A DNA stretch of 64,000 nucleotides from an uncultured Pseudomonadota bacterium. GTDB taxonomy: Bacteria > Pseudomonadota > Alphaproteobacteria > Rs-D84. Both the position numbers and the translations under genes were made by a program. The stretch spans positions 40,968 to 104,967 of the forward strand of contig CAMZIQ010000001.1 of the NCBI GenBank assembly GCA_947307295.1, given 5' to 3'. This document shows positions 40,386-47,384 of the stretch, one piece after another. The first letter of the stretch is position 1; each line of letters begins with the position of its first letter. Under the pieces are notes generated by a model. It saw nothing but the letters and a program-made list of their open reading frames with translations. It was not told the origin of the DNA and did not search any database.

Positions 40386-40411
40386 ATTATTTTTCCATCA
40401 CAAAAGTTATA

Positions 40412-41269
40412 TTATTTCCAAAACATTTTGCATATAGGTATGCACTCGAATAACACAATCCAATTATTTTTAATCTTTACCAATGGGATAAATCCAAACA
40501 AACGCAATCTAAATTGAGTTCCTGGAACCATCATTTTTGATGCCACACGACGATATTCAGGATATTTAGATGATATTTCCATACGAATATTTGCAGCAGC
40601 CTCTTCACGAGCATCATTCATACGCTTAGACGTATTATTTTCAAACCATCTGTAATGAATTAAAATTTCTTGAAAATTATAAAAATGAGTCACTTCCATC
40701 AAACGTGTCCACAAACGATAATCTTCAGCCGGGGTATAAAATTCTTCATATTCAATATTATTATCAACCAAAACAGATTTACGTATCATTGATGCAGAAT
40801 GTATCACGAAACAATTTTCAGTCAGATGAACACGAATCTGCGAATCCATTTCAGGAGTTTTACATAAATCATCATAATTATCCCCAAAATAATGAGCCCA
40901 ACCAGACACAACACCAATATGTGGATGAGAATCCAGATATGCAACTTCTTTTTCCAAACGTTCTGGCACAGATACATCATCATGGTCGAATATAGCCAAA
41001 TATTCCCCCGCAGCCATTTTCACCAACCTATTCCGCGAAGGCGTAATCCCCATATTTTTTGTATTTTTTATATATTTTACACGTTTATCTTTTTTAGCAT
41101 AATCTTTGACAATCTTTTCAATTTCTTTATTATCAGGGCTGTCATTTAAAATCAAAAATTCAAAATCTGTAAAAGTCTGATTTAAAATAGATTCAATCAT
41201 TTCACGCAAATGCGTTGGATTAGTATTATAAATCGGCGTTAAAACAGATACTTTTGGTGCTTTTGGCAT
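40412..41269 (-). CDS. family 2 glycosyltransferase
   Basis: VSVLTPIYN, ILNDSPDN and AIFDHDDV (DxD) GT2-A motifs. Confidence 0.85.
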   Translation of the reverse strand: MPKAPKVSVLTPIYNTNPTHLREMIESILNQTFTDFEFLILNDSPDNKEIEKIVKDYAKKDKRVKYIKNTKNMGITPSRNRLVKMAAGEYLAIFDHDDVSVPERLEKEVAYLDSHPHIGVVSGWAHYFGDNYDDLCKTPEMDSQIRVHLTENCFVIHSASMIRKSVLVDNNIEYEEFYTPAEDYRLWTRLMEVTHFYNFQEILIHYRWFENNTSKRMNDAREEAAANIRMEISSKYPEYRRVASKMMVPGTQFRLRLFGFIPLVKIKNNWIVLFECIPICKMFWK

Positions 41270-41384
41270 TGGCTTTCCTTTGTTATATTTATAAAAAATA
41301 GGATAATATTATTGTGCCATAAAAATAGATAATAGCAAGATGTTTATTTTATAAATGATGAAAAAAACACAGTTGCGCCAAGCA

Positions 41385-41430
41385 CAATTCACGAACCAAC
41401 ATAATCAAAATCAGACAAGAGATTGATGAA
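41385..41430. repeat. island repeat part 2, copy A (caattcacgaaccaacataatcaaaatcagacaagagattgatgaa)
   Basis: 46-nt element, 70–85% identical to copies at 41894, 42557 and 43336. Confidence 0.7.
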
Positions 41431-41453
41431 TTTGTTTTAAAATATTATCAGCG

Positions 41454-41798
41454 TTATTTTTTACGCCCTCTACCCCCGTCTAATAAAACGATGTGTGTTT
41501 CAATCATCCCGCTTTTCATACGTCTACGTGCTACCGTAAAACCTCGTTCATAAGATCTTTGAAAATTTTTCAATATGTTTTCAATGTTACCAATTTCAAT
41601 TATACTGCGAACCGCGTTGTTATATCCTGGTTTCTCGGTTGGCCCAATAGAAAGAACTTTTTCCACATGCCACTTTACAGCACTAATTTCCTGATCAGTC
41701 AATGTGCGTCCCAAACCTTCATTTTTTAAGCTTGTCAGCGATAAATTTTGTTTTTTCATTGAATCATTTGCTTTTTGCAATTCTTTATTGGCATCCAT
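41454..41798 (-). CDS. hypothetical protein (114 aa)
   Basis: ORF flanked by island repeats A and B; no recognisable motif. Confidence 0.45.
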   Translation of the reverse strand: MDANKELQKANDSMKKQNLSLTSLKNEGLGRTLTDQEISAVKWHVEKVLSIGPTEKPGYNNAVRSIIEIGNIENILKNFQRSYERGFTVARRRMKSGMIETHIVLLDGGRGRKK

Positions 41799-41893
41799 AA
41801 TTTATCCTTTTTTATATTATTACACCCCTATTATATAACACAAAAAAACATATTGTCAATATTTATTTAAAAAATTCACTTTCGCCACCTATG

Positions 41894-41939
41894 CAATTCA
41901 CGAGCCGATATAATCAAAATCGGAAAAGAGATTGATGAA
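41894..41939. repeat. island repeat part 2, copy B
   Basis: caattcacgagccgatataatcaaaatcggaaaagagattgatgaa. Confidence 0.7.
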
Positions 41940-41975
41940 ATGAAAGACACATTAAACCTGCCAAATTTAATTTGA

Positions 41976-42491
41976 TTACGGAATAAATGTTTCAATATAT
42001 TTCCAACCGTTTTCATCTAAAACGAAATGAAAACATTGGGCATTTTGAATACCGTCAACTTTATGTCCGCACGCCCAACATAGTGCACGTGTTACGCCAC
42101 CATGAGAAGCAATCGCAATATTTTCATGTTTATCTGTCTTAACAATTTGTTCTAGGTAATTTTTTATAAGTTTGAAATTATCGTTTATTTGCTTTTTCTT
42201 TTCTTCGTCTTCAACATCCCAAAACCAAAATATCGCTTCTTTGAGGGCGTCATTGGTTACAATTTTGATATCTGTACCATTTGTGATTGCAATTTTTGCG
42301 GTATCTATTGCACGTCTGTAAGGACTTGAATAAACAATCTGAATATTTTTATCTTTAAAAAATTCGTGCAACTTGGTTGCCTGTATAACACCTAAATCTG
42401 TCAACCAAGCATCAATACCTGTGCCATACCGAACACCAACTTCGTTTTCATTTGTTTGTCCATGCCTGAAAAAATAAAAATGCCTTTCCAT
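41976..42491 (-). CDS. histidine phosphatase family protein (PGAM/SixA-like)
   Basis: RHGQT catalytic motif at the N-terminus and …ASHGG…; 171 aa. Confidence 0.8.
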   Translation of the reverse strand: MERHFYFFRHGQTNENEVGVRYGTGIDAWLTDLGVIQATKLHEFFKDKNIQIVYSSPYRRAIDTAKIAITNGTDIKIVTNDALKEAIFWFWDVEDEEKKKQINDNFKLIKNYLEQIVKTDKHENIAIASHGGVTRALCWACGHKVDGIQNAQCFHFVLDENGWKYIETFIP

Positions 42492-42523
42492 GAAATAACC
42501 TTTTCAAAAATTATATCACAACA

Positions 42524-42600
42524 GTTCGAATATGACAAATTTTCGATATTTTACATGATTCACAAACCACCATAATCAAAATCAAACAAGAAATAATAGA
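42524..42600. repeat. island repeat copy C (truncated part 1 fused to part 2)
   Basis: gttcgaatatgacaaattttcgatatttt followed by gattcacaaaccaccataatcaaaatcaaacaagaaataataga. Confidence 0.65.
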
Positions 42601-42614
42601 TTTCAAAAACAAAT

Positions 42615-42623
42615 TTATGGTAT
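42615..42623 (+). promoter_or_regulatory. extended -10 promoter (TGgTATAAT) for the NlpC/P60-like gene
   Basis: tggtataat 11 nt upstream of the ATG at 42634. Confidence 0.4.
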
Positions 42624-42633
42624 AATATAGAAT

Positions 42634-43206
42634 ATGCAAACAAATATAGATTTCTTTAACAATTTGTTCCGACAGGACTTCGTTTCTGAATACAATCATT
42701 CTAATTATATTGATAAATTTGGTGGTAAAAATTTCTTTCATATGGATTGCAGCGGTTTCGTTTATTGGTGCTTGGCACAAATGGGTTATAAACGGGCGTT
42801 GGTTGAATTGAAAAATTTTTTAAAAGAAAACGATTTTATAAAAATAAATAGATTTTTCTGTAAAGACTTTGCATTTATTCATGAACATAAAAATAAATTA
42901 ACCTATTGGGATTTCATGGACAGACCTATTTCTGGTTCTATTATGGTTGTTGTATTTCCTGATGGTAATGGTCATTGTATGTTTATTGATAACATCATCG
43001 ATAATAATAAAACTAAACTATGTTTGTGGGTGATTGATTCTACCCAATACCCACATAAAAGCGACACCAGAACAGATGAAGAAACAGGCATAGGTATTGG
43101 CGAAATTGAAATAACAACTAAAAACGGCGATTGGTTCTATGATTCTGGCAACAAATCATTACCAATAAGAAAAGCAGAAATATATTTTATATCACCCAAA
43201 AAATAA
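42634..43206 (+). CDS. NlpC/P60-like (papain-fold) cysteine peptidase/amidase-like protein
   Basis: DCSGFVYWC catalytic-Cys motif with a downstream His (GNGHCMFID); 190 aa. Confidence 0.5.
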   Translation: MQTNIDFFNNLFRQDFVSEYNHSNYIDKFGGKNFFHMDCSGFVYWCLAQMGYKRALVELKNFLKENDFIKINRFFCKDFAFIHEHKNKLTYWDFMDRPISGSIMVVVFPDGNGHCMFIDNIIDNNKTKLCLWVIDSTQYPHKSDTRTDEETGIGIGEIEITTKNGDWFYDSGNKSLPIRKAEIYFISPKK

Positions 43207-43209
43207 AAA

Positions 43210-43382
43210 GTTTGAAAATGACAATTTTTTGATATTTTTCCAAAACAAAACTTTCGAACTCGGTGAAAGTATTAGCAAACAAATAAAAAACCGCCCTGAA
43301 ACGAACGATTGTCTATCTTGGTTGTGCTATCTGTGCAATTTGCGAGCCTATATCATCAAAACTGGACAAGAGATTAATGAAG
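43210..43382. repeat. island composite repeat copy D (part 1 palindrome, degenerate tRNA-3'-end-like segment, part 2)
   Basis: gtttgaaaatgacaattttttgatatttttccaaaacaaaactttcgaactcggtgaaag … tcttggttgtgctatctgtg … caatttgcgagcctatatcatcaaaactggacaagagattaatgaa. Confidence 0.7.
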
Positions 43383-43427
43383 CGAAAGACAAACTAGGAC
43401 TCTGATTAAATAATATTTGTTTAGTAA

Positions 43428-44015
43428 TTATTTACCCTTGTATTCACTTACCAGTTTAGAAAAAATCAAATGATCTGTCCATTTACCGTTGGATAGTTTC
43501 GCATATTCTCTTAAACGGCCATCCAAATGATACCCACTGCTTAAAATAGATTTTAGTGACCTTTCATTGTTTTCCATACATTGACGACTCATACGGTGTA
43601 TTTTTAAATCGTTGAATGTGATTTTTTCCAAAAGATTATGGATTTCATGATTAAAACCATGACCCCATGCTGATTTAACAAACCAAACATTACCTGGGTT
43701 AACAGTATCATTTTCTTTATTATACGAAACGCCATGAAAGCCGATCAATTTACCACCATGAAACACATACCATAAAACCCCATTGAATTTAAATGCTTCT
43801 GCGTAATTTTTCATTGTTTCAAATGTTTCATCCAATGATTCTGGCAAAGGTTTATCATATTTTGGTGAATAATGTATAAAAGCAAAATCTTCTGGATTTT
43901 CATTTTTAATTGCTTCCCACACCAGTTCAGCATTTTGCATTGTTGGTTCAAGAATACGAAGTTCCAATCTTTCTGTTTTGTGATTTTTTTTGAAGAATTT
44001 AAAAAACTTTTCCAT
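43428..44015 (-). CDS. GNAT family N-acetyltransferase (RimJ/RimL-like)
   Basis: GNAT fold pattern (…VLWYVFHGGKLIGFHGV…NPGNVWFV…); 195 aa. Confidence 0.75.
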   Translation of the reverse strand: MEKFFKFFKKNHKTERLELRILEPTMQNAELVWEAIKNENPEDFAFIHYSPKYDKPLPESLDETFETMKNYAEAFKFNGVLWYVFHGGKLIGFHGVSYNKENDTVNPGNVWFVKSAWGHGFNHEIHNLLEKITFNDLKIHRMSRQCMENNERSLKSILSSGYHLDGRLREYAKLSNGKWTDHLIFSKLVSEYKGK

Positions 44016-44030
44016 ATTATCACCTTTTTA

Positions 44031-44801
44031 TTATTTTTCCGCTTCTGCTATTTTTTTACGTAATTCAGGTTCGTTTTGCTGAACAAAATTATATGACTTT
44101 TCCATAAAATCGTATATGTCTTTACGTTCCAGATATAACTTTTTCATAGTATCAAACAGCAATTTTCCATTTATTTCCATCTCATAAAAATATGAATATG
44201 CTATGTGTTTTGGTTGCTTAACCAAATTTCCAATTTCGGAATTACGAATTATGGTTTCAACAACTATTTCCGATAAAACCCATTTCAAATGTGGGGTATC
44301 ATATTCGTCAGGATTGTCTTTGAAGTATTCGTGCCAAATATAAAACCAAACAAAATGTGTTATTTCATGCAATGCAGCAAATATCGCGTATTCTGGCTCG
44401 AACTTATAGAAAACATCAAAAGTGTATTCTTGTACATTTCGGGGACAAACAGGGTCTAATCCAACGAAACCTACCATATCATTCAAAATTTTTGTACAAT
44501 CATACCCAAAAGTTGATGAATACGCTTGATTTAACTTTTTTGCTACTGGTATCCAATTCGTTTGAAACATTTTTATTGAATTCTGTATATCGTCAGAGTG
44601 CAAAACCGATAATTTTTCCATTTCTTTTCGTATATATTTCAAACGTTCAGATTCTGGTAATTTTCTTGCATATTCGTAATTTAAAGACGGAAACACTTCA
44701 AAAAGCCGTTTAGACCACCAAGCTGGTTTATCATCTTGCTGTAAAAACAAAATAAAATCCAAATCCTCTTCAAAATCTTTTTGTTTCCAAGTTAGTTGCA
44801 T
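44031..44801 (-). CDS. hypothetical protein with an HExxH motif (putative zinc-dependent hydrolase), 256 aa
   Basis: ALHEITHFVWF contains HEITH; 16 nt upstream of the GNAT gene (probable operon). Confidence 0.45.
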   Translation of the reverse strand: MQLTWKQKDFEEDLDFILFLQQDDKPAWWSKRLFEVFPSLNYEYARKLPESERLKYIRKEMEKLSVLHSDDIQNSIKMFQTNWIPVAKKLNQAYSSTFGYDCTKILNDMVGFVGLDPVCPRNVQEYTFDVFYKFEPEYAIFAALHEITHFVWFYIWHEYFKDNPDEYDTPHLKWVLSEIVVETIIRNSEIGNLVKQPKHIAYSYFYEMEINGKLLFDTMKKLYLERKDIYDFMEKSYNFVQQNEPELRKKIAEAEK

Positions 44802-44845
44802 TGTACCAATCCTTTAATAGCTGTAGTACGATTGTATCACAAAAA

Positions 44846-45010
44846 GTTCGAAAATGCCAAAAAATTGCGATTTTTCAAAATTAAACTTTCGAACTCGATG
44901 AAAAACTTGCGATTCCAACAAAAACCGCACTTATGGACGGTTATGTAAACTATGGTTGGGGTACACGGTGCCTTGATACACAATAATAAAAATCAAAAAA
45001 ATCTCCAGTT
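44846..45010. repeat. island composite repeat copy E (part 1 palindrome, exact 16-nt tRNA-Gln 3'-end repeat, degenerate part 2)
   Basis: gttcgaaaatgccaaaaaattgcgatttttcaaaattaaactttcgaactcgatgaaaaac … tggttggggtacacgg … cacaataataaaaatcaaa. Confidence 0.7.
44953..44968. repeat. exact 16-bp direct repeat of the tRNA-Gln 3' end (tggttggggtacacgg); att-like
   Basis: Identical to 45195-45210, which is the reverse complement of the tRNA 3' terminus including CCA. Confidence 0.8.
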
Positions 45011-45156
45011 GTCGATTTTTTAATATTTTTCTAATTGTCTATCTGCGTACTCGCTCGCCCCCATTACAATGGTGGCTGCGCGGCAATCGTAACGATTTTG
45101 TTTTACAAAATCTACTGCTTGTCGAACCTGCGATTCTCGTCTCGTTATCACCAAAA

Positions 45157-45186
45157 CCAAAAATTAAAACCCCCACAAGGGGTGTT
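45157..45186 (-). terminator. hairpin plus T-run immediately downstream of the tRNA-Gln 3' end
   Basis: On the minus strand: aaacaccccttgtggggg followed by ttttaatttt. Confidence 0.5.
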
Positions 45187-45194
45187 TAAATTCT

Positions 45195-45268
45195 TGGTTG
45201 GGGTACACGGACTCGAACCGCGATATACAGAGTCAGAGTCTGCTGTTCTACCATTAAACTATACCCCA
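45195..45268 (-). tRNA. tRNA-Gln (anticodon CUG)
   Basis: Hand-folded cloverleaf: 7-bp acceptor with a U1:A72 pair typical of bacterial tRNA-Gln (UGGGGUA…UACCCCA), D-arm GUUU/GAAC, anticodon loop CUCUGAC, T-arm CGCGG-UUCGAGU-CCGUG, discriminator A, encoded CCA. Confidence 0.85.
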
Positions 45269-45304
45269 ATTCAGCCCTATATTATATATGTATTATTTGT
45301 TTTT

Positions 45305-46030
45305 TCAATCAAATATTTTCAAATCTTTAAAGTCATTATGGCTGGCTTTTGGAATTAATTTTATATCTGTTTCATCTGCCCACGTTTTTGCTAATTCATA
45401 TGGTACAACATCATCACGTTCACCAACAAAATGGGTTTGTGCAACGGCTGGCAAAGTTTCCATATTCAAAGATTCATCTAGCGGTTCATCACCAAAATAT
45501 TCTGTCCATTTTTTATGATTTAAAACCCCAGCAATCGTTATCCATTTTTCAAAATTCATTTTTGGATTTTGTTTTATAATCAGACCAGAAACCATCGCAC
45601 CACCAGAATATCCAATAATCGTTATTTTTTTATTTTTCGCGATTTGCTTAATCACCCTGCTTTCTGCATCTATGACTTTCTGTGAAAATCGCCCATCTGT
45701 CCAATCTGATTCGTTACAATTTTTATCCATTATAAATTGGCAAGGTCTTGCAACATAAACAACGTTTTCAAAATTATCAGCCACAGCTAAATCTCGCACA
45801 AAAGTTCCACGTGGTGTTGGATTACTTGTCGGTTGACCGTATGAATCAAAAGCATATCCATCGCCTTCGATATAAACATGAATTTGATTATTTTCAGGAT
45901 TATTTATTTTCTGCCAAGTTGCGATTTTATAAGAATCTGTTTGCACTGGTACATATTGAAAGTCATCTGGCGCAACCCAGTTTGCGCCTGCACATCCAGA
46001 CAAAAAAAGAATCAAAAACAATTTTTTCAT
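45305..46030 (-). CDS. lipoprotein with an alpha/beta-hydrolase (esterase/lipase-like) fold
   Basis: Lipobox LFLILFLSGC and GxSxG nucleophile motif IIGYSGGAMV. Start at MKKLF. Confidence 0.6.
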   Translation of the reverse strand: MKKLFLILFLSGCAGANWVAPDDFQYVPVQTDSYKIATWQKINNPENNQIHVYIEGDGYAFDSYGQPTSNPTPRGTFVRDLAVADNFENVVYVARPCQFIMDKNCNESDWTDGRFSQKVIDAESRVIKQIAKNKKITIIGYSGGAMVSGLIIKQNPKMNFEKWITIAGVLNHKKWTEYFGDEPLDESLNMETLPAVAQTHFVGERDDVVPYELAKTWADETDIKLIPKASHNDFKDLKIFD

Positions 46031-46145: not shown

Positions 46146-47384
46146 ATGAAAATAAAACCATTTGCAGGTGTAAGACCACCAAAAGATTTAGCAAAAGAAG
46201 TCGCATCACGTCCTTATGACGTTTTGAATTCTGTTGAAGCAAAGACTGAAGCTGGTGAAAAATCTTTATTGCACATTATTAAACCAGAAATTGATTTTGA
46301 CCCAATTGCCGATGAACACGAACAAAAAACTTATGACAAAGCTGTTGAAAATTTCAAAAAATGGCAAGAACGTGGCTGGCTGACCCAAGACGACAAAGAA
46401 ATGTATTACATCTATGCACAAACTATGGATGGTCGCACTCAATATGGTTTGGTAGCCGCAGCAAATGTTGATGATTACATGACCGGCAAAATTAAAAAAC
46501 ACGAATTAACCAGAAAAGAAAAAGAAGACGATCGTATGATTCACGTTCGTATTCAAAATGCTAATTTGGAACCTGTGTTCTTTGCTTATCCTGATGTTGC
46601 TGAAATGAATGATTTGGTTTCTGATTGGATTGCAAAACACGAACCAGAATATGACTTTGTTGCAGAAGATGGATTTGGTCATACTTTCTGGAAAATTGAT
46701 GACGATGCAACAAATGCTCGCATCACAGAAATTTTTGCAAAAGTTCCTGCGTTTTATGTTGCAGACGGTCACCACAGAACCGCAGCTGCTGCACGTGTTG
46801 GTGCTGAAAAACGTGAACAAAACCCAAATCACACAGGCAACGAAGAATATAACTATTTCTTGGCTGTAATTTTCCCAGAAAGCCAATTACACGTTATCGA
46901 CTATAACCGCGTAGTCAAAGATTTAAACGGATTGTCTGCTGATGAATTTATCGAAAAATTGCGTGAATCTTTTGAAGTAAAAGAAATGGGTTCAGAAATT
47001 TACCATCCAAATAAACTACACAACTTTTCTATGTATCTGGATGGCAAATGGTATTCTTTGACAGCCAAAGCTGGGACTTATAATGACAACGATCCAATCG
47101 GCGTTTTAGACGTGACAGTATTATCCAATTTGGTGTTTGACAAGATATTGAATTTGGGTGATTTGCGCACATCAAAACGCATTGACTTTGTCGGTGGAAT
47201 TCGCGGTCTTGGCGAATTGAAAAAACGCGTAGATTCTGGTGAAATGGTTGTTGCGTTTGCTTTGTACCCTGTGACAATGCGTCAAATTATTGACATTGCA
47301 GACACAGGCAACATTATGCCTCCAAAGACAACTTGGTTTGAACCAAAATTACGTAGTGGTTTGGTAATTCACAAATTATCATAA
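46146..47384 (+). CDS. DUF1015 family protein (412 aa)
   Basis: N-terminal MKIKPFAGVRPPKDLAKEVASRPYDVLNSVEA matches the DUF1015 signature as recalled; typical length. Confidence 0.65.
   Translation: MKIKPFAGVRPPKDLAKEVASRPYDVLNSVEAKTEAGEKSLLHIIKPEIDFDPIADEHEQKTYDKAVENFKKWQERGWLTQDDKEMYYIYAQTMDGRTQYGLVAAANVDDYMTGKIKKHELTRKEKEDDRMIHVRIQNANLEPVFFAYPDVAEMNDLVSDWIAKHEPEYDFVAEDGFGHTFWKIDDDATNARITEIFAKVPAFYVADGHHRTAAAARVGAEKREQNPNHTGNEEYNYFLAVIFPESQLHVIDYNRVVKDLNGLSADEFIEKLRESFEVKEMGSEIYHPNKLHNFSMYLDGKWYSLTAKAGTYNDNDPIGVLDVTVLSNLVFDKILNLGDLRTSKRIDFVGGIRGLGELKKRVDSGEMVVAFALYPVTMRQIIDIADTGNIMPPKTTWFEPKLRSGLVIHKLS

Follow-up and report, generated by a model that had tools for sequence, protein, structure and literature searches.

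A TTCGAA-armed palindrome at the junctions of tRNA-linked gene cassettes in uncultured gut Alphaproteobacteria

Introduction

In a 64-kb stretch of DNA (64,000 nucleotides, referred to here as the window) from an uncultured alphaproteobacterium, copies of a short imperfect palindrome stand at the borders of small, unrelated genes, which raises the question of what larger unit the palindrome belongs to and what role its two arms have. A neighbouring DUF1015 protein places the host among the uncultured gut Alphaproteobacteria labelled Candidatus Enterousia; the order Rs-D84 group has genomes below ~1 Mb (PMC12306168). The DUF1015 protein itself (46146-47384) is 72-82% identical to homologues from Bacteroidales/Alistipes and 84-92% identical to those of its own relatives, and these identities suggest that the gene may have been transferred between phyla in the gut. 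Related loci and contigs are designated by L numbers.

Copies of the palindrome in the window

Re-reading of positions 42000-45600 bore out the coordinates and sequences of the three copies, C, D and E, from which the original prediction started (Table 1). The arms had been described as exact reverse complements, and this is true of copy E only: together with its flanking bases E forms a perfect 9-bp inverted repeat (AGTTCGAAA / TTTCGAACT), whereas D carries one mismatch. Copy D, which scores 99.3 bits with the nhmmer profile of the junction modules, adjoins the stop codon of a convergent NlpC/P60-like gene and has no -10 box. Copy C is a deletion remnant (42524-42552), in which the left arm (GTTCGAAT, 42524-42531) and ~20 nt of the interior are joined directly to a second conserved segment, 'part 2', the right arm, linker, hairpin and core all being deleted.

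The palindromic symmetry is confined to arms of 8-9 bp, and the interior of 32-33 nt is not palindromic save for a weak inner dyad. Folded as single-stranded DNA, 71-mers were no better than their shuffles, with z between -0.2 and -0.7; TTTCGAAC has four occurrences in the 64-kb window with 3.5 expected, and perfect 8-bp inverted repeats with loops of 28-38 nt number 33 in the window against 20 +/- 4 in shuffles. Based on the fold scores and these chance-level counts, the palindrome is unremarkable as an isolated object. D and E had no match in Rfam at E <= 1 and no excess stability, and a DNA-uptake sequence or other over-represented motif was ruled out by the chance frequency of the 8-mer in the window. 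What makes the palindrome more than chance is its recurrence and conservation, and in this respect the prediction of a repeated, conserved symmetric element at cassette borders holds well, as 41 distinct modules, taken from relatives and metagenomes, share these arms and their spacing.

Table 1. Positions of the palindromes, junctions and cargo genes of the cassette island in the window.
Feature	Position	Strand	Remarks
Palindrome E	44846-44894		Arms GTTCGAAA (44846-44853) and TTTCGAAC (44887-44894); -35 box in the interior
Palindrome D	43210-43259		Arms GTTTGAAA (43210-43217) and TTTCGAAC (43252-43259); one mismatch
tRNA-Gln(CTG), anchor of the cassette array	45195-45268	-	ARAGORN; Rfam 67.5 bits
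Intrinsic terminator hairpin directly after the tRNA	45169-45183	-	Terminator scan
'S element', conserved, without genes, ~200 nt, from the tRNA terminator to the partial tRNA copy	44969-45168	-	TTGTCGAACC motif
Exact 16-nt copy of the tRNA-Gln 3' end (attachment-core repeat)	44953-44968	-	242 bp from the tRNA
Junction E, AT-rich linker and terminator-like hairpin (44923-44942)	44895-44952	-	Terminator scan; nhmmer module 44836-44968
Cassette E cargo, 256-aa protein (no Pfam hit; gene start 44801) and GNAT acetyltransferase	43428-44801	-	
Junction D, pseudo-core TGGTTGTGCTATCTGTGCAATTTGCGAGCC and 'tail' (= part 2)	43319-43405	.	Repeat family D2
Junction D, linker GGTGAAAGTATTAGCAAACAAA and hairpin (43289-43310)	43260-43318	-	
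Cassette D cargo, NlpC/P60-like gene of 190 aa in inverted orientation	42634-43206	+	
Junction C, tail; far end TGGTATAAT (42618-42626) faces the NlpC-like gene (ATG 42634)	42553-42633	+	Assigned from sequence
Palindrome C remnant and promoter for the histidine-phosphatase gene (start 42491)	42510-42552	-	Promoter scan 11/12
Junction B, tail only, arms lost; 12/12 promoter (41859-41830) for a 114-aa gene	41830-41975	-	
Junction A, decayed tail and hairpin (41373-41387), upstream of a GT2 glycosyltransferase gene	41270-41453	-	

A tRNA-Gln gene anchors the island

The genes at coordinates below the tRNA are small, unrelated and mostly on the minus strand, and the intergenic junctions between them, A to E, can be aligned to each other. 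The 3' end of tRNA-Gln reads TGGTTGGGGTACACGG on the plus strand and has two exact matches in the window, at 44953 and at 45195, while two or more matches at up to three mismatches were found in only 1 of 100 shuffles; the island thus has the direct repeat of a tRNA 3' end, with an intact tRNA at one end, by which tRNA-targeting integrative elements are recognized. The completeness of the junctions drops with distance from the tRNA, E being full, D having one mismatch, C being deleted and B and A retaining the tail only. Terminator-like hairpins were found by the terminator scan at 45183-45169, 44942-44923, 43310-43289 and 41387-41373. Homologues of the NlpC/P60-like gene of cassette D occur in cassettes of L003, L096 and L102.

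The S element next to the tRNA has homologues in L003, L008 (9640-9810), L009, L089, L102 and L105 and no match in Rfam. It contains a TTTCGAACC-like motif and several hairpins, with compensatory changes at 8 of 15 predicted pairs among six sequences. Possible identities are an empty cassette, a small RNA and an arm belonging to some other integrating element.

Part 2, the tail of the junctions together with its pseudo-core, is present at 43319-43405, 42553-42630, 41890-41971 and 41370-41440 and in a further 29 copies in related loci. Its plus strand yields a peptide-like consensus, WLCSVCNSRTELLEIGREIDExKDKLGLPNLY, which ends at a stop and whose Leu codons vary; the reading frame has no start codon, and no long protein contains the peptide. 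The statistics of the codon positions point both ways, with entropies of 0.94/0.69/1.33 and a synonymous fraction that does not exceed that of one antisense frame. We rejected the idea that part 2 is the C-terminus of an integrase split by integration, since a profile search of 5.8 billion proteins returned 12 ORFs of 37-88 aa with unrelated N-termini. The far end of part 2 is accounted for by a plus-strand promoter box.

The junction in related genomes

The 49-bp GTTCGAAA...TTTCGAAC unit recurs in L003 and L008, where it also lies beside tRNA-Gln fragments. Metagenomes were scanned with a pattern made of the right arm and the linker only, the core being excluded, and 23 contigs were returned; these contigs together with L003, L008, L083 and window copy D gave a set of 28 modules. 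With an nhmmer profile of the modules we found ~50 full-length copies on ~30 contigs of related gut Alphaproteobacteria, often 2-4 per contig, so that the motif has many copies outside the window and its arms are conserved in relatives, the reverse of the outcome by which the original prediction was to be abandoned.

Read in the direction of the tRNA, the order of the unit is core or pseudo-core, terminator hairpin, AT-rich linker, palindrome, gene, tail and next core, and at a finer level the linker is followed by an arm (GAGTTCGAAAG), ~32 nt with the -35 box, the other arm (TTTCGAAC), the extended -10 box and the gene. The palindrome is therefore the outer, cargo-facing part of an arm of ~135 bp, and this arm, the core and a tail of ~100 nt make up a junction of ~280 bp. 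Of the 28 modules, 24 have TGGTTG 59-65 nt past the right arm, and this core belongs to an intact tRNA-Gln(CTG), tRNA-Gln(TTG) or tRNA-Met(CAT), to a partial copy of 16-21 nt, or to a pseudo-core, TGGTTGTGCTCGGTGTGCAATTCGCGAACC, followed by the tail. The partial copies match the resident tRNA and are species-specific in L008, L086, L089, L105 and L083. tRNA-Gln(TTG) is a third anchor with the same module (L111 3529-3602, L112 4813-4886), and all three target tRNAs end in CAACCA. The palindrome was never seen alone and its orientation relative to the tRNA is constant. There are also junctions without palindrome and linker within the arrays (L003 ~2340, L008 ~8270 and the S element), indicating that the palindrome is dispensable for membership of an array. 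Comparison of the junction with annotated phage and plasmid collections and with Rfam gave no match.

These data leave little of the proposal that the element resembles terminal inverted repeats or a MITE. Inverted termini of 8-9 bp in several copies in one region are what a MITE family or the ends of a small transposon would leave, but no more than 32 nt lie between the arms, target-site duplications are absent, and copies are found only in tRNA-linked arrays, in constant orientation to the tRNA and nearly always 59-65 nt from TGGTTG. There are no dispersed copies in the 64-kb window, in which the module profile finds D and E only and the motif is not over-represented, and we consider a transposon origin hardly credible.

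Conservation of the arms

In the alignment of the 41 distinct copies, conservation is highest in the columns of the arms, and the sequence of the interior varies. The length of the interior is 32 nt in 28 copies and 31-33 nt in 40, which places the TTCGAA centres ~41 bp apart. Of the left arms, 24 read GTTCGAAA and 14 read GTTCAAAA, 38 of the right arms read CTTTCGAAC, and the pair 9-49 is unpaired in 7 of 28 sequences. Since the left arm varies while the right arm is nearly invariant, arm variation is uncompensated and breaks the pairing; changes on both sides were seen in the inner 7-bp dyad beside the left arm, at all seven of its pairs. Structure prediction, which had been suggested as a check of the element, thus gave neither an excess of stability over shuffles nor compensation in the arms, and a structural hairpin or cruciform was ruled out on these grounds. 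An invertible switch was also ruled out, as the orientation of the interior is identical in 41 of 41 copies. The conservation pattern would fit arms that are sequence-specific binding sites for a protein and not the strands of a hairpin, and a protein-binding role, for a recombinase or for a regulator, appears to be the most sensible reading.

In modules without a promoter, where the neighbouring gene is convergent, the modules cease to resemble one another exactly at the outer G of GTTCGAAA. The right arm runs on into a strongly conserved linker. In the target tRNAs the arm heptamer TTCGAAC recurs as the T-loop segment, adjacent to the crossover and shared core. The left-arm variants match the T-loop segments as well, TTCGAAC in tRNA-Gln and TTTGAAC in tRNA-Met, and the right arm is TTTCGAAC in both types of array. 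Indeed, the left arm carries G in 17 of 19 modules from tRNA-Gln arrays and A in 13 of 17 from tRNA-Met arrays (Fisher p ~1e-4, kinship ignored). As kinship was ignored and a methyltransferase cassette common to both types of array keeps the G in each, this correlation is a lead only.

It is quite unlikely that the arms have no function of their own and are inherited pieces of a promoter/terminator 'expression platform' that spread with the cassettes, their symmetry being a historical accident such as a duplicated segment of the tRNA T-loop. The identity of TTCGAAC with that segment, the continuity of the right arm with the conserved linker and the fact that a single palindrome of such size is not above chance are all in line with this explanation, as is the tendency of cassettes of common descent to keep their arm variant whatever the array. 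It is difficult to reconcile with arms whose conservation in ~40 diverged copies far exceeds that of the 32 nt they enclose, at a spacing that holds to +/-1 nt, and with an interior that is remodelled to promoter or terminator while the arms are left untouched.

The same alignments bear on a site like integron attC, which would fold in single-stranded DNA and would itself be the crossover point. Outer boxes conserved in sequence and inner boxes conserved as a dyad only recall the R and L boxes of attC, the similarity of modules ends at G|TTC of the outer arm, and the arrays consist of small, mostly co-oriented cassettes. The order of the boxes, however, is GTT...AAC and not AAC...GTT: both strands read 5'-GTTCGAAA...TTTCGAAC-3', with C, a pyrimidine, at position 4. 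A 15-nt bulge on one side makes the fold asymmetric, its energy is no better than that of shuffles (z -0.2 to -0.7), the outer arms are uncompensated with double changes limited to the inner 7-bp dyad, the breakpoints of shared cassettes are at TGGTTG and not at the arms, and no intI-like gene was found at the arrays. A site of the attC kind is highly improbable in view of these differences.

Promoters and terminators in the junction

On the tRNA-sense strand, the left arm lies inside the spacer of a promoter-like site of the form TTGNCA-17/18-TGnTAYAAT. In the window such sites precede cassette C (TTGTCA-17-TATAAT with an upstream TG, 42538-42510) and cassette E (TTGGCA-18-TACAAT with an upstream TG, 44860-44831 on the minus strand, with arm TTTCGAAC within the spacer). 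Both have sigma-70 hexamers at -35 and -10 that are 17 +/- 1 nt apart and upstream of a gene in the right orientation, and they are the only promoter-like hits of the island with the upstream TG, the total number of hits in the region being at chance. The palindrome had been placed just upstream of minus-strand genes, which is correct for C and E, where it overlaps good sigma-70-type promoters, but not for D, which adjoins the 3' end of a convergent gene. An extended -10 box (TGnTAYAAT) was seen in 17 of the 23 modules whose cargo points away from the arm and in none of the 18 whose cargo is convergent, and the arms and the 41-bp spacing of their centres are unchanged with or without the promoter. 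The order of the unit puts one arm in the promoter spacer, at about -25, and the other at about -66.

In some relatives with convergent cargo the interior is a GTGGCGAAAAATCGCCAC hairpin followed by a T-run, of which the arms are not part; judged by its sequence, this interior would serve as the terminator of the convergent gene. At its far end the tail has a promoter-like box facing in the opposite direction, for instance TGGTATAAT at 42618-42626 in the window and TTGCAT-17-TACAAT in L088, and with these opposite-facing boxes the junction resembles a platform for expression in both directions, with a terminator and the core at its centre. The -10 box of the NlpC/P60-like gene, TGGTATAAT, ends 7 nt before the ATG (42618-42634), as it does in the L096 homologue, which implies a leaderless mRNA. 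We are highly confident that the palindrome belongs to a tRNA-linked cassette junction that overlaps a promoter.

The position of an arm between -35 and -10, seen in C, E and 17 further modules, suits an operator equally well. A dedicated repressor or activator, acting as a dimer of dimers, could occupy the TTCGAA site in the promoter spacer together with that at about -66, four helical turns away, and co-regulate all cassette promoters; the spacing is indeed fixed at 41 bp, and the inner dyad overlaps the -35 box with changes on both sides at 7 of 7 pairs. Yet at least 15 modules lack a -10 box and have the 3' end of a convergent gene as their neighbour, and in these both arms are just as conserved; the element stands next to attachment cores only and never at other promoters of the window, and no regulator gene is consistently linked to the arrays or travels with them, an HTH_3 gene being found in L083 and L084 only. 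On these grounds we regard a shared operator as unlikely, though it is the chief alternative to the explanation preferred below.

Breakpoints and probable movement of the cassettes

The DNA downstream of the tRNA differs in every related species examined, and the cargo of the arrays is miscellaneous, comprising GT2, GNAT, histidine phosphatase, NlpC/P60, peptidase S41, Fic, MFS, ABC and restriction-modification genes. One methyltransferase cassette, complete with 5' UTR, promoter, palindrome and linker, was found in three settings, at a pseudo-core in L083, at a genuine tRNA-Gln in L097 and at a partial tRNA-Met in L092. Its similarity ends at TGGTTG in all three, so that the crossover falls at the very last part of the tRNA 3' end and the palindrome is assigned to the side of the cassette.

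A second shared segment, of ~680 bp at 99.7% identity (L008 8380-9059 and L085 823-1500), spans an alpha/beta hydrolase gene, the promoter of this gene and the distal tail, and is common to a tRNA-Gln and a tRNA-Met array. Its identity points to a recent exchange by another route: the breakpoints are in the tail and in the promoter region and not at the core or the arm, so homologous recombination also reshuffles the cargo.

Comparison of L003 (1-2350) with the window (40400-45270) showed the whole array inverted relative to the flank with the hydrolase and DUF1015 genes. The L003 contig ends within repeated tRNA fragments, and the pseudo-cores of L002 are inverted relative to their own tRNA. 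Together, L003 and L002 suggest inversions and assembly breaks at these repeats.

Search for a recombinase

No integrase or recombinase was found in the window by Pfam searches of the 10 island and flanking proteins or by a crude motif screen of every reading frame, nor among relatives in ~45 loci, in which the ORFs of the array and its flanks were searched with Pfam together with the neighbours upstream of the tRNA. The crude screen, applied in all frames to the window and ~40 loci, was also negative, and the precomputed Pfam lists of further contigs contained no recombinase at the arrays, with a lone unrelated resolvase 9 kb away in L081. An integrase within the element, as is usual for tRNA-targeting elements, is thus missing from ~45 loci and the examined region of the window, and no recombinase domain or motif of an intI/attI/Pc platform lies near any array examined.

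The sole viral contig with the module (L108-L110, IMGVR_UViG_3300033463_010496) has a prophage beside a module at a partial tRNA-Met. This prophage encodes primase/helicase, tail, terminase and portal proteins, TnpB and a C5-methylase that is split by an intein with a LAGLIDADG domain. Neither an integrase nor a second core was encountered in the 34 kb of the prophage that were walked.

Discussion

Our preferred explanation, to which we give an even chance, is that the arms are accessory ('arm-type') sites of a recombinase in an attP-like cassette junction. Bound in this way, they would probably assist a site-specific recombinase that inserts and excises cassettes at TGGTTG, and as a recombinase is absent from every array examined, it would act in trans. 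Arm-type sites would fit better than an operator because sequence and not pairing is conserved, the distances between arms and core are fixed, the arms persist independently of the promoter, and they match the T-loop. That the conserved junction ends at the outer arm where a promoter is lacking was also counted towards the arm-type reading.

A broader proposal, somewhat doubtful and put forward tentatively, is that the Rs-D84 gut Alphaproteobacteria, with genomes of <1 Mb, possess an integron-like gene-capture system not described before, in which cassettes are moved by a recombinase in trans. The CAACCA 3' end of tRNA-Gln or tRNA-Met would then have the role of attI, and each cassette would bring a composite site of ~280 bp (arm, core and tail) that doubles as a bidirectional expression platform. 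The recombinase would be encoded elsewhere in the genome, with the TTCGAA arms as its accessory sites.

Should the arrays be active, they would account for the flexible gene pool that Ca. Enterousia and relatives, as uncultured and extremely reduced gut bacteria, maintain without visible mobile-element machinery; among the cargo are cell-surface enzymes, restriction-modification systems, efflux pumps and Fic proteins. Active arrays would also represent a second, independently evolved cassette-array architecture beside integrons, with a promoter and a terminator for each cassette. The conserved junction is a probe in its own right, since one short pattern recovers arrays from metagenomes, and a search for the missing recombinase or regulator has a precise target in the TTCGAA arms.

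Comparison with known systems

The CIMEs (cis-mobilizable elements) of streptococci are att-flanked units without an integrase of their own, and they undergo accretion. In tycheposon islands, tandem integration at a tRNA leaves partial tRNA copies and pushes older inserts outwards (10.1101/2020.12.28.424599). The arrays described here resemble the tycheposon islands of Prochlorococcus (10.1101/2020.12.28.424599) in that a flexible island lies directly downstream of a tRNA in a streamlined genome, with partial tRNA 3' ends between the inserts and newer inserts that push decaying older ones outwards. Unlike tycheposons and CIMEs, the units are of 0.6-2.5 kb, usually with one gene, they share one junction of ~280 bp that combines the TTCGAA palindrome with a terminator and outward promoters, and the same junction is found at three different tRNAs. 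No integrase, primase or excisionase was found in any array here, and the hallmark of tycheposons, a tyrosine recombinase with a replication or packaging module, is replaced by miscellaneous cargo.

With integron arrays and CALINs they have in common single-gene cassettes of unrelated functions that are mostly co-oriented, and an adjacent integrase that can be absent; as in integron arrays, the separating site is imperfectly symmetric, of 60-140 bp, with conserved outer boxes and a variable inner part. The boxes differ from those of attC, GTTCGAA...TTCGAAC here versus RYYYAAC...GTTRRRY, and there is no fold signal. Crossover is at a separate, tRNA-derived core, the anchor is a tRNA gene and not attI with intI, and the cassettes, unlike those of integrons, bring their own promoters and terminators.

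There is also a likeness in layout to attP of the lambda type, in which short repeated motifs, here putative binding sites, lie 60-115 bp from the core and the outermost marks the end of the site; the junction, at ~135 bp plus core plus ~100 bp, resembles attP at ~240 bp. It differs from the arm sites of lambda attP in that the motif equals part of the tRNA T-loop and overlaps a promoter. On the sequence comparisons presented here, we class the palindrome as the outer junction element of a cassette in a variant of tRNA-anchored integrative arrays, and neither an attC site nor a member of a MITE family.
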